Shown: positions 711 to 41,615 of the stretch, piece by piece
Layout: each line of letters starts with the position of its first letter
How positions within the stretch are numbered: the stretch's first letter is position 1
DNA from: Octopus vulgaris
Lineage: Eukaryota
Direction: 5' to 3'
Length of the DNA: 64,000 nt
NCBI GenBank assembly: GCA_951406725.2
Contig: OX597814.1
Coordinates: forward strand, 96,968,001-97,032,000
The notes under the pieces: generated by a model
What the model saw: the letters and a program-made list of their open reading frames with translations, nothing else
Database searches by the model: none
Told to the model about the DNA's origin: nothing
Program-made: the position numbers and the translations under genes

Positions 711-969
711 ACGGAGATGTACTTGCATAGCAAGTGACTTGATCTGAGATTGTGTGCTGGAACGAAAACAATTGCAGCGTGGAAGGTGTTTATAAGGCAT
801 TTAAGAAACACACAAAACCTGAGATGCAGCATGAAACTTTGTCAGTGAACAGGTCGCAGTCTCAAAGTGACGAAAAAATTTTGACAAATTAAATTTAAAT
901 GTTGAAGTGAATCTAACGGTTTTGTGTGTTTCTTAAATGGCTTATAAACACCTTCCATGCTGCAATTGT
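711..969 (+). mobile_element. Palindromic Penelope-like pLTR remnant in (TA)n
   Basis: 52-bp inverted arms 768-819 / 918-969, flanked by (TA)n, hammerhead-like motif in the spacer. Confidence 0.6.
838..888 (+). ncRNA. Minimal hammerhead ribozyme-like motif, G3:C8 core variant
   Basis: TTTGTCA-GTGAACA-G-GTCGC(agtctcaaa)GTGAC-GAAA-AAATTT-TGACAAA; stems I and II pair. Confidence 0.55.
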
Positions 970-1072
970 ATATATATATATATATATATATATATATATA
1001 TATATATATATATATATATATATATATATATATATATATATATATATATATATATATATATATATATATATA
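969..1072. repeat. (TA)n microsatellite
   Basis: about 50 perfect TA units; source of the spurious YIYI ORFs. Confidence 0.95.
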
Positions 1073-2087
1073 CACACACACATATATATATATATGTGAT
1101 GATTCAAGGATTGCTTTAGCATTAATATATACCAACTAACAACCAAGATCAGATGAGTTTAATTTAGCTTTTTAATGCACATTTCATTTCACACTCTATT
1201 CCTCCCTTACACCAACAACTTACTCAACCATCCACCTCCCCCTAACTACATTCATTATTTTCCCTTCCACTTCCATCGACTGCCATGCCTCAGGGATTCT
1301 AGGATAGCTGGTTCACTGCCCAACCATTCATACTGCCATTCATTGAAATATCGTCACATTGTCTGCACAATTGAAGAAAATTATTATATTATGCTATTTT
1401 TTGGACAAAGATTATTTTTGCAAGTTTGCAAAATGATATTTTTCTAAATTATATAAATTAATCTGTGTGTGTGTGTGTGTGTGCATGCAACTTTGTCACT
1501 CATCATCGTCCTCATCATCATCATTGTTTAACGTCTGTTTTCCATGCTAGCATGGATTGGACAGTTTGACTGGGGTCTGGGAAGCCAGGAGGCTGCACCA
1601 GGCTCCAGTCTGATCTGGTAGTGTTTCTACAGCTGGAAGCTTTTCCTAACGCCAACCACTCCATCTGCTTGACAAAAGCTGTTGGCTTGTTTACATTACT
1701 TCGACTTGGCTGATCAGCATTAAGAGATAGACAGGAAAAAATCCAAACTTCAAAGAAGGACTATAGTTGATTTCATCAAGTAGAACCCTCTATGTAGTGG
1801 CCATAATAGCAGTTAGAAACAAAAGCAAGTCAGAGAATATATATATCAAAAAGACATTCAAGACAAAATAGCCAATTCAGTATTAGAAATATATTGAAAT
1901 AAAATTGTAACAAATTAATATAGAAGCTTTATCTTCTAAATACTGAAGAGACATCTCAATAACACTTGGGAACTTGGGACATACATACATACATACATAC
2001 ATACATACATACATACATACATACATACATGCATACACACATACATACATACATACATACATACATACATACATACATAAATACATA

Positions 2088-2952
2088 CTGGGTGCAGTGA
2101 ATATATTGTTGTCTAAATTACACAAAAATGAAAATATCACTGACATTTCAGTTTAACAAATATATTTACCAAAATTACATAAAAAACATTTTGAAATACT
2201 AAAAAGTAAGTTTATTCAATAAAATCACCATTGGCTTCAACCACAGCCTTCAGATGACTTCAGAATCTCTTGCAACTCTTCTGGATGGTCTCCTTGTTTA
2301 AGTTGATGAATGCTGTCATAATCCTTGCCTTCAGTTTATCTTTGATGTTACAAGGAATTTTGTTGGTCTCTCAGTCAACTGCACTCCACACATAATAAAC
2401 AAGCGGGTTGCAGTCTGAGGAGTTAGGTGGTCAGATGTTAGGGATGATGTGGTCACAGAAATTGTCTGACAGCCATGACTGGGTTCTCCTGCTTGTGTGA
2501 CATGGTCCAGAGTCTTATTGCCAGACATAGGGTCTTTCAGCAGCCACCCTCTTGACTCAGGGCAGCACTACATCCTCCAGGCACTTGATGTAGGCCTCTG
2601 TATTGAGTCTGAGGCCATGTGGGAAGATGAATGGAGGCATAACGTCACCGTCATGTGGACTGGGTCTTTGATTTTTATCACTCTCGTTACATGTTTTGAG
2701 GACATGGCAAGCCAATGGTTGTTATGTGTGTTCACCATCTGTTCATAATGGAGCTTCCAACATGAATGCCAAGCAGTACAGCATGCCATTTCCAAATTTC
2801 TGGCAGAGTGAATTGTGTCATGGTGCTGTTTTTCTCACAGACGGTGCCCAACTGACCCTACTATACTGTGTAGTCATCAAAATCAAAAACAAACAATGTG
2901 CATGAGCAACATTGAAAATATAAAATGGCAACAATTTACCCTTCGCACCACA
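2088..2952 (-). mobile_element. Internally deleted Tc1/mariner-superfamily transposon, DD37D (maT-like)
   Basis: TA-flanked degenerate TIRs; minus strand gives YVWQ*DSGPCHTSRRTQSWLSDNFCDHIIPNI*PPNSSDCNPL(V)YYVW, with 37 residues between the second D and the expected third D position. Confidence 0.75.
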
Positions 2953-3537
2953 TATATATATACACACACACACATATGTATGTGTATGTGTATATATATA
3001 TATGTGTGTGTGTGTGTGTGTGTGTGTGTGTGTGTGTGTGTGTGTGTGTATGTGTGTGTGTGTATATGTGTATATATATATATGTGTGTTTGTGTGTGTA
3101 TGTGTGTGTATATGTATATATATATATATGTATATATATATATATATATATATATTTACACATGATGAGTATATAGAGATTAATTATCCAGGCAGGTACT
3201 ATAAGAGCCCTCAAGTATTGTCCATATTCTGACTAATCATATCAAGTAGTAAGAAGCACTAAGGATTACTTATGGTGAACAATCTCACTGTGATTCTTGT
3301 AATTGGAAAATCCAGGTTCACTTGCTGAATTATGAAACATTTTAATTTCACTTTTACAATTCATTATGCAGCATAATTACTTAGTTAACAAATTAATTAT
3401 GCAGTATGAATAACTGTTAAATAAAAGGAAAAGTTTGAAGTTATACCAGTCTCCATATTTTTTGTATTTGTTTTGGATTTGCTCTCCCGAATATATGTAT
3501 GTATGTACGCTTGTATGTGTGTGGTGGGTTTCATATA

Positions 3538-39366: not shown

Positions 39367-39418
39367 AATTTTTTTTGATAAGGTTCGTCATTTCAAGAAC
39401 CGAAATATGTTAAAAATT
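39367..39418 (+). ncRNA. Hammerhead-like motif, U3:A8 variant (right-arm copy)
   Basis: aatttttt-TTGATAA-GGTTC(gtcatttcaa)GAACC-GAAA-TATG-TT-aaaaatt. Confidence 0.58.
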
Positions 39419-40250
39419 AAAATTTGTCTAATATAGCAGTATTTTCAAACTTCATTTTTTACAAATATATACCCACTCGTATACGAGCTAATCTTATTAT
39501 AAATATATATATATATATATAACATATATAACTAGAGCTCTATTGGTTACAGCAACAAATGTTCCAGTTGATCTGATCAATGGAACAGCCTGCTTGTGAA
39601 ATTAATGTGCAAGTAGCTGAGCACTCCACAGACATGCATACCCTTATTGTAGTTAGTTCTCATGAAGATAAGATTCAATGAAACATAGAATATAGCAAGG
39701 CTGGCCCATTGAATTACAGGAACTACTCATTTTCACCAGCAGAGTGAACTGGAGCAATGTGAGATGAAGTGAATTATGATTTCACTGGAGCCAAGCTGTA
39801 TCAGCCTTTGCCTTTCCCTTAGATAAAATTGGTGGTATGGGGAGGGGAGACCGATGTGCATGGGTGACTACCAGTCTCCCATAAACCTTGCCTAGACTTG
39901 TGCCTTTGAGGAGAACTTTCTAGGTGCACTCCCATGGTCATTCATGACTGATGGAGGTTTTACCCTTTTTACTATTTATTATGAGGAGGCAGGAAAATGA
40001 AAGGGAAGGTTTCATAAATTGAAGTGGGTACAGTGGCAATTTAATTCTAACTATTGCTTATATAGAGATACAGGTGGGAAGAAAGTTCTGGAAGTGTGAA
40101 AATCCTGGTAAAAATTCTTACAGAAAGCATTTATGAAAATATGCAGTGATGAGAAGAAAAGAGAAAGATATATTTAAATGAATACAGACTACAAAAAAAT
40201 AAAGTGAAATAAGGAAACAAGTCTCATGTGAAAACAGTTAAGGCAATGAT

Positions 40251-40522
40251 TACTTATTTATGCGCCCTTTTCAAGCCTAGCCAGGCCCATGGGCCCGGTT
40301 TCCGTGGCGTATGTGTTCACCCCAGCTGGACAGGATGCCAGTCCATCACAGCAATACTCAAGAAACAGGAAGAAAGAGTGAGAGAAAGTTGGGGCAAAAG
40401 AGTACAACAGGGGGTTGCCATGGAGCTTTAGGTGTTTTCGCTCATTAAACACACACAATGCCTGGTCTGAGAATTGAAACTGCGATTCTCCGATCGTGAG
40501 TCCGCTGCCCTAAACACTGGGC
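40251..40522 (-). mobile_element. Young tRNA-derived SINE with target-site duplication
   Basis: flanked by the 12-bp direct repeat TAAGGCAATGAT; tRNA-like head on the minus strand. Confidence 0.75.
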
Positions 40523-41231
40523 TAAGGCAATGATATCCACCTTTAATTAAATAATCATATAATGAAGTAGTCTAAGGTGGTGAATCAGTCGAGTCATAAT
40601 AGCATTGATAGAATGTTGTATAGTATATGTTCCAGCTTTCTGCGCTCTGAGTTCAAAACCCACCAAGATCTTTTCAGGGTTGATAAAAAAGTGTCAATTT
40701 AAGGTGTTGGATTAAACTGTTAGAGAATTGGGCAAACTGTTTTGCAATATATGTCTGAGCTCTTGGGAATCTGACAGCAGCACCTGTGACACTGATTTCA
40801 GGCTGTGTCAGCTGAAGTCAACGACTTTTCCATTGGATAAATGTTGGAGCCATAGAGAGAGGTGTGACTTGTGTGCATGGGCAACTGCCAGTTTTCTTCA
40901 AAATATCTTGCCCAGATTTGTGCATGCATGTGCAGATGTATGAACAGCTTTGACAAATAGCTGCCTCTCTGGAAATGGATGCACTAGGTTGGTATGTCAA
41001 CCCTATCTGATCAAATATACTTCATAAATCACATTTATAATCTGTCATTATTCAATAGTCTTAATTATCTATTACAGAGACATTCATAACATATGAAACA
41101 AAATAAATATCAACTTCATGCTTTCCTCTTATATCATGTATACATGTATATAAACTTACTTGGAAATGGATGCATCATGTTCAATTAAATACTAACAAAT
41201 AATATATATGTATATATATATATATATATAT

Positions 41232-41615
41232 AAAGTTAATCCAAACAATAAAGCACAAAAAACACAATAATGCGAGGACGTGGAACAAATATAGTATTAT
41301 TGGACGCTCAGGAAAGAAGGAAAGAAGGAGGGTTTAATGTTTCGAGCGGAGCTCTTCGTCGGAAACATAGAAGGAAAGATCCAGAGAAGGGAAGACAGAA
41401 GAACAAAAAAAATTGCCAATGGTACACACGCGGTCACATTTTGAAAATATATATATATATATATATATATATATATTAGGCATATATGGGTACAGGATGT
41501 CACCAACAGTGCAATCAACATGAAATACGTAAACAAACAAGTTAAATACGTAAACAACAAAATGGAAAACAGGACAAGTAAACACAGAGAAAGTTCTGAA
41601 CCTTTCCAACTTCAT
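41232..41615 (-). mobile_element. Penelope-like pLTR remnant with decayed hammerhead
   Basis: in (TA)n; minus strand GTTT-CCGACGA-A-GAGC(tcc)GCTC-GAAA-CATT-AAAC at 41366-41332. Confidence 0.6.

Follow-up and report, generated by a model that had tools for sequence, protein, structure and literature searches.

The 64,000-nt stretch of Octopus vulgaris contig OX597814.1 that was analyzed (assembly GCA_951406725.2, positions 96,968,001 to 97,032,000 of the forward strand; hereafter the window) lies in a 2.8-Gb, microsatellite-rich genome and carries minimal hammerhead ribozyme motifs within repeats of the Penelope-like element (PLE) type. All seven heptamers proposed as hammerhead cores in an earlier note on this DNA were present where it had placed them. 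The complete layout of core, stem II, GAAA, UH and stem I was found at six sites, 845+, 12269+, 34441+, 39375+, 37600- and 41362-. The elements had been described as at least six mutually unrelated repeats; five families, named here after their window positions, are real, the 6729 site on the minus strand falls in coding sequence, 37600 mirrors 39375, and 845 and 12269 are sisters. Complementary 3:8 positions, with compensatory changes, had been noted; a swap of this core pair is present in three families (845, 12269 and 39375), and 34441 and 41362 keep C3-G8. The motifs are genuine minimal hammerheads of the PLE type, their variant cores being fixed at the level of the family, and the window features that bear on them are the following.

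706..969, no single strand: short PLE insertion between TA repeats, an inverted, truncated and tailed copy (~706-817, minus) joined to a forward stub (819-969)
838..888, plus: minimal type I hammerhead with G3-C8 (GUGAACA at 845-851), an extra G, a 5-bp stem II, GAAA, U17 at 881 and a 7-bp stem I
12266..12302, plus: minimal hammerhead with U3-A8 (UUGAAAA), stem III AAUU and a 3-bp stem I that is broken in the window copy
34186..34661, plus: copy of a retrozyme-like unit (488 nt, non-coding, circularly permuted), its 5' end carrying a short inversion
34429..34502, plus: type I hammerhead with the canonical core CUGAAGA and A17; stems I and II are long and stem III is palindromic
37491..39484, no single strand: inverted pair of 5'-truncated 3' untranslated regions of one PLE family, with arms of ~950 nt
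37557..37607, minus: mirror of the 39375 hammerhead, in the inverted arm
39368..39418, plus: minimal hammerhead with U3-A8 (UUGAUAA), stem III ACAUGU in the family and AUAUGU here
41221..41459, minus: non-autonomous element of ~220 nt, flanked by TA repeats and related to 3' ends of PLEs of the U6 clade
41332..41366, minus: minimal hammerhead with C3-G8 and C at position 4 (CCGACGA), a 4-bp stem II, palindrome ACGU in the family and ACAU here

The window and 40 local dinucleotide shuffles were searched with a strict descriptor of type I that required at least 4 bp in each of stems I and II. It returned four window sites, all with a Watson-Crick pair at 3:8; the shuffles averaged 0.6 sites (maximum 3), or 0.125 (maximum 1) when only sites paired at 3:8 were counted. 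The descriptor missed 41362, which has a 3-nt loop, and, with stem I of at least 3 bp, the decayed stem I of 12269. An Rfam scan of the window at E ≤ 10 gave no hammerhead model among the best 150 of 189 matches; these consisted only of microsatellite-driven microRNA and small nucleolar RNA models and were not used.

The cores were counted across family copies. In BLAST-selected rows, the window core was found in 41 of 49 for 845 (GTGAACA), 28 of 28 for 12269 (TTGAAAA), 21 of 24 for 39375 (TTGATAA), 22 of 22 for 34441 (CTGAAGA), and 16 of 26 for 41362 (CCGACGA). Such copies lean towards the query, and 845, 12269, and 41362 were recounted with the core replaced by N; the core was not left open for 39375 and 34441. 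The N-core census of 845 yielded 1,508 matches, and among the first 100 matches listed GTGAACA was present in 86, G3 in 98, C8 in 96, and C3-G8 in none. For 12269 there were 31 matches, with TTGAAAA in 23, U3 in all 31, and A8 in 29, and for 41362 there were 8,257 matches, 5,841 of them with C at position 4. Reversed-pattern controls of these censuses gave 0 matches. The majority cores were thus non-canonical in 845, 12269, 39375, and 41362, and the sequence counts support non-canonical cores as family states, not copy decay.

The family majorities have the topology of minimal PLE hammerheads (type I, stems I and II, GAAA, UH, and a short palindromic stem III). G5, A9, GAAA, and U16.1 are conserved across all families, G10.1-C11.1 is a G-C pair in all five, and the extra base after A9 is clear in 845, 12269, and 41362. 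No family majority has G at position 17, where the pattern used for the U6 clade permitted only A or U. The core CUGANGA or the published U3-A8 form is matched by 34441, 12269, and 39375; 845 (G3-C8) and 41362 (C4) deviate. TA targets, inverted partners, and tails were observed across families, and 5' truncation, inverted copies, a one-sided tail, and microsatellite targets are present as described for endonuclease-bearing PLEs in the available part of PMC8557442. The window copies differ from the family majority in stem I or III in five of six cases: AAAATT instead of AATATT in 845, TAC instead of TAG in 12269, ATATGT instead of ACATGT in 39375, ACAT instead of ACGT in 41362, and ATTAA instead of ATTGA in 34441. 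Having lost a stem I or III base relative to the family, these copies are themselves probably inert.

Coding sequence was sought upstream of the 845 motif, whose stem III palindrome is AAUAUU in the family and AAAAUU in the window copy. The sequence upstream of the motif had 1,053 matches and was reached via overhang in public contigs. Four long copies share a common 3' coding region ~1.1 kb upstream of the motif. In L285 (L numbers denote fetched loci) this region is an open frame of 530 codons; it has motifs of a reverse transcriptase (RT) and a cysteine linker, and it matches the GIY-YIG domain in Pfam. Distant 845-family pairs 2.7-6 kb apart had no linked open reading frame (ORF) and were rejected as full-length elements. 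RT matches in L177 and L260 and an endonuclease in L288 were dropped as links, being on the opposite strand, downstream, or joined at a junction.

Short 845 copies (window 819-844 and L255-L284) extended at most 25 nt upstream of the core in 36 of 36 cases; eight ended exactly 23 nt upstream, and G preceded five of those. In the long copies (1,053 upstream matches), a branch-point-like and pyrimidine-rich stretch ending in CAG was observed at the same 23-nt point, so that the boundary may be a splice acceptor or, alternatively, a start site whose cap G was copied. A composite palindromic 845 unit with an identical inversion junction was present at many loci (L194, L203-L205, L213, and L219-L221) and was apparently multiplied inside a larger repeat.

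Long copies of the 12269 family (L379 and others, found by tblastn) carry decayed coding sequence homologous to that of 845, ~650 nt upstream of the motif; three other long copies had no ORF within ~6 kb. The two coding sequences are ~30-60% identical by segment, with 43-46% over the longest RT segments. Their motifs were compared by eye, as MAFFT misregistered stem II. At 3:8, G-C in 845 stands against U-A in 12269, a C-G pair of stem II likewise stands against U-A, and loop II differs in length. The G3-C8 versus U3-A8 difference between the sisters is a genuine compensatory change, and the change in stem II is compensatory as well.

The 37600 site is an inverted duplicate of 39375, with arms 96-98% complementary, and because of this inverted arrangement the two motifs are unable to pair on one transcript. 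A GIY-YIG ORF was found ~1 kb upstream of the motif in two copies of the 39375 family (L057 and L059), and RT linkage of the family is likely. Its clade is distant from the 845/12269 clade; U3-A8 is therefore found in two clades, as the 39375 endonuclease comes from a clade distant to that of 12269.

In the 34441 family, no coding partner was linked in 20 loci, and the longest stop-free run of the unit is 59 codons. One locus (L100) has two cores 488 nt apart in direct tandem. Permuted copies (L088, L090, and L098) start with sequence that is normally 3' of the ribozyme, one of them ~6-7 nt past the predicted cut. Judged from these features, the layout is that of a non-LTR (long terminal repeat) retrozyme.

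The 41362 element looks non-autonomous: 17 of the 17 longest copies share a start point and have neither common unique sequence nor an ORF upstream, and over 213 nt the element shares 67% identity with the 3' end of another PLE clade. At a mean pairwise distance of 7.7% (23 copies), compared to 12.2% for U4 (7 copies), the C4 subfamily is the younger of the two; it outnumbers U4 and differs from it at several linked positions. CpG decay or copy noise was rejected as the source of C4, which was present in 22 of 23 copies of one subfamily with linked diagnostic sites, all 7 U4 copies belonging to an older subfamily. A few U4 copies were observed on the C4 background (L117 and L366).

The sister clade of 41362 has U at position 6, where A is normally invariant. 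It had 17,185 exact-flank matches, and among the first 100 matches listed U6 was found in 96, C3 in 99, and G8 in 98, with all four bases at position 7. In the autonomous U6 PLE (L322-L354), CUGUUGA was present in 27 of 28 motif-bearing coding copies, and 2 of 30 loci had no visible motif. A search for this element gave 9,337 first-look candidates, of which 150 were scored and were at least 99% identical over 144 amino acids, with frames of up to 1,214 codons; its loci include G000:C13:24945500-24953500 and G000:C2:34638500-34646500. Two full-length copies (L353 and L354) have 1,200-codon frames and U6 in both terminal repeats. A CX2-5CxxC linker precedes the endonuclease in L285, L059, and L338 and suggests a likeness to Neptune or Nematis. 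A further window copy related to the U6 clade 3' end, at 7830-8090 on the plus strand, has ~110 nt resembling the RT fragment at 7103-7513 in place of the hammerhead.

Selection on the 3:8 pair was considered next to these family data. When 1.08 Mb of fetched loci were scanned with a relaxed descriptor that left positions 3, 4, 6, 7, and 8 free, 193 distinct motif contexts were found versus 3.3 per shuffle; the five large clusters were all paired at 3:8, in loci enriched by our own searches and representing few families. At positions 3 and 8, no alternative letter reached 5% in four public runs (contigs, coded as four organisms). The family-wide swaps at 3:8 suggest that the fold is kept by selection, and the U6 clade, with C3 and G8 fixed while position 7 varies, looks like a case of continued selection on the fold. 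The reading we favor, and consider moderately probable, is that a selected fold resides in PLE terminal repeats and non-coding derivatives, with the 3:8 pair preserved and slow cutting as a dimer or with the help of protein. Core states differ from family to family and are fixed within each, selection on source elements likely preserving the 3:8 pair; in this view the motif would be able to fold, and its cutting, in dimer form or helped by the protein of the element, would be slow. Transcription would begin within the terminal repeat, and the template that the RT copies into TA microsatellites would mostly be uncut RNA, so that thousands of stubs of ~200 nt contain the whole motif. Cutting may accordingly be a slow, late, or secondary step, and because of that, weakening changes such as C4 and U6 could reach high copy number.

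Several observations weigh against this reading. The 5' ends of only 1-2 of 30 tail-selected copies were near the predicted cut site, one of them explained by stem I microhomology, so that uncut RNA would be the usual template and genomic copies give little indication of cutting. In minimum free energy folds of dimers, an intermolecular stem III with both stems II intact was predicted for one of six copies, stem II swapping being mostly dominant and making these folds uninformative. Only three families are swapped at 3:8, and these were chosen for a hammerhead-like look; one 2-member cluster of the relaxed scan, probably due to chance, was unpaired there. Both U6 and C4 are predicted-harmful changes that reached fixation. 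In the Poseidon PLE of the lizard Anolis carolinensis (Frangieh et al. 2024, PMC11167929), as far as that paper was available, the ribozyme was dispensable for insertion in vitro, and no RNA-seq reads ended at the cut site. The earlier note had argued that random decay would not keep 3:8 pairing and that the ribozymes were hence probably functional; the cores are indeed family states and not copy decay, but fixation alone does not show function, because a younger subfamily fixed C4 and an abundant autonomous sister clade fixed U at A6. Its attribution of the motifs to PLEs stands in that all sit in PLE-type repeats, with RT/GIY-YIG coding sequence linked for three of the five families.

The main rival explanation is retention of the motif as a folded structure that serves recognition, be it for the RT-endonuclease, the translation start, or the promoter region, with the 3:8 pair maintained for the sake of the fold and the chemistry dispensable. 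We regard this as a possible but clearly less probable account. It would fit the presence of U6 in both terminal repeats of intact 1,200-codon elements (L353 and L354) and the origin of genomic copies mostly from uncut RNA, as well as the normal insertion of catalytic mutants in vitro (PMC11167929) and the thriving of Naiad PLEs without canonical hammerheads (PMC8557442), both according to the available parts of these papers. However, G5, A9, GAAA, and U16.1 are conserved in all families and no majority has G17, as catalysis needs, C4 is tolerated in viroid ribozymes in the portion of PMC9608096 that was available, and a natural A6C variant is slow, not dead, in the corresponding portion of PMC3088659.

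Neutral founder effects, by which families inherit the letters of a source copy and 3:8 complementarity reflects coincidence and ascertainment, seem unlikely. A single source copy does fix all its letters in thousands of descendants, and the C4 subfamily is both younger (7.7% versus 12.2%) and separated from U4 by several linked differences. On the other hand, all three families changed at position 3 or 8 altered both, to a Watson-Crick pair, G-C versus U-A between sisters requires two transversions, and the stems covary, in contrast to the free variation of loop II and position 7. That the motifs are random matches in AT-rich sequence is very improbable as a general explanation and is refuted for five families by the family alignments. 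The frequency comparison with shuffled sequence raised earlier had a divided outcome: without stem I, the descriptor gave 19 window sites against a shuffle mean of 12.6 (maximum 21), so that the loose motif is near background, and 6729 was a chance match, whereas the strict motif lies above it (4 versus 0.6). Moreover, the motif is the family majority, and in three families it lies where a PLE hammerhead is expected, behind RT/GIY-YIG coding sequence.

The rejected 6729 site lies in the following feature.

6689..7041, minus: decayed PLE GIY-YIG endonuclease coding sequence, containing the 6729 site

No GAAA follows the stem there, TTGATAA was found in 1 of 20 aligned homologues, and the hammerhead was discarded as a chance match within coding sequence 7041-6689 minus. 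This endonuclease and a separate PLE RT fragment (7103-7513, plus) lie in divergent orientation on either side of a microsatellite. At 41505-41595 on the minus strand is the 3' end of a further abundant repeat inserted in TA sequence, with 1,635 first-look candidates; its relatives have CTGATGAAGGGTC just upstream, and GAAA did not follow in the copies viewed. Decayed frames at 33431-33829, 32650-33167, and 32081-32413, all minus, are presumably of LTR-retrotransposon origin, resembling RT and ribonuclease H in their motifs. A direct duplication of ~1.4 kb (49019-50420 and 57750-59163) is 94-97% identical, with the copies 8.7 kb apart. A dispersed ~170-nt repeat resembling a short interspersed element (SINE) is present at 25889, 28593, 44365, 47790, 51431, 54158, 57129, 61605, and 63109, and we take it to be akin to octopus SINEs.

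In this genome, over 24,000 exact-flank motifs (1,508, about 5,800, and about 17,000) escape searches based on CUGAnGA. Hammerheads are nearly universal in PLEs, are poor cutters alone, and were dispensable for insertion in the sole in vitro system. As family-fixed natural cores with RT-endonuclease genes of their own, G3-C8, C4, and U6 offer constructs for separating catalysis from folding. Only tentatively do we propose that the PLE lineages of one genome explored at least five cores (C3-G8, U3-A8, G3-C8, C4, and U6) and that an amplified autonomous family runs on A6U while keeping the 3:8 pair. If so, PLE hammerheads would either be maintained for recognition by the RT or be protein-assisted folds whose core rules are unlike those of free ribozymes, and the families would provide a natural series of mutants for testing the purpose of PLE hammerheads. 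Short of a demonstration of cleavage or protein dependence, the gain is an incremental one.

Both the phenomenon in general and the U3-A8 swap have been published before. Minimal PLE ribozymes with a palindromic stem III and weak cleavage as dimers were described by Cervera and de la Peña (2014, PMC4209133), and in the available part of that paper U3-A8 was searched for and found in PLEs, with ~1,300 matches in Schistosoma mansoni and UUGAUAA and UUGAAAA in Fig. S3. The motifs there resemble those of the window in being type I, with the extra base after A9, G10.1-C11.1, and a palindromic stem III, mostly solitary or in close inverted pairs. The Fig. S3 rows examined contain no G3-C8, C4, or U6 and no cephalopod, whereas coding families of the present genome have G3-C8 and U6 as fixed states. 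No PLE with a natural G3-C8 or A6U was found in the published literature compared, which was judged largely from listings and did not extend to the largest survey of PLE variants (Lünse 2017) or to Arkhipova 2017, either of which may hold G3-C8, C4, or U6. Two states may be new: the natural G3-C8 of a coding PLE whose sister family has U3-A8, and the A6U core of an amplified PLE that is intact.

The 34441 family shares with described non-LTR retrozymes (available parts of Cervera and de la Peña 2020, PMC7229834, and Li et al., bioRxiv 10.64898/2026.07.22.740005) the non-coding nature, the canonical type I core, and tandem and permuted copies. It differs from them in the 488-nt unit, compared to 170-400 nt, and in being mostly dispersed in TA repeats with PLE-like inversions. 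As in Poseidon, the ribozyme lies in the terminal repeat, the 3' end has a tail signature, and targets are AT-rich. According to the accessible text of PMC11167929, the Poseidon ribozyme cuts only with protein and the C3G/G8C mutant partly rescues; G3-C8 was engineered there and is the natural family state here, where the CX2-5CxxC linker is Neptune/Nematis-like, unlike in Poseidon. Among other hammerheads, natural U3-A8 and a natural low-activity A6C were reported by Perreault et al. (2011, PMC3088659), and CCGA is tolerated in viroids (PMC9608096) and recurs in viroid-like RNAs (bioRxiv 10.64898/2026.09.16.752053), as the parts of these sources consulted describe. Core variants outside PLEs in these sources are rare single replicons, in contrast to the C4 and U6 states fixed in thousands of genomic copies here.

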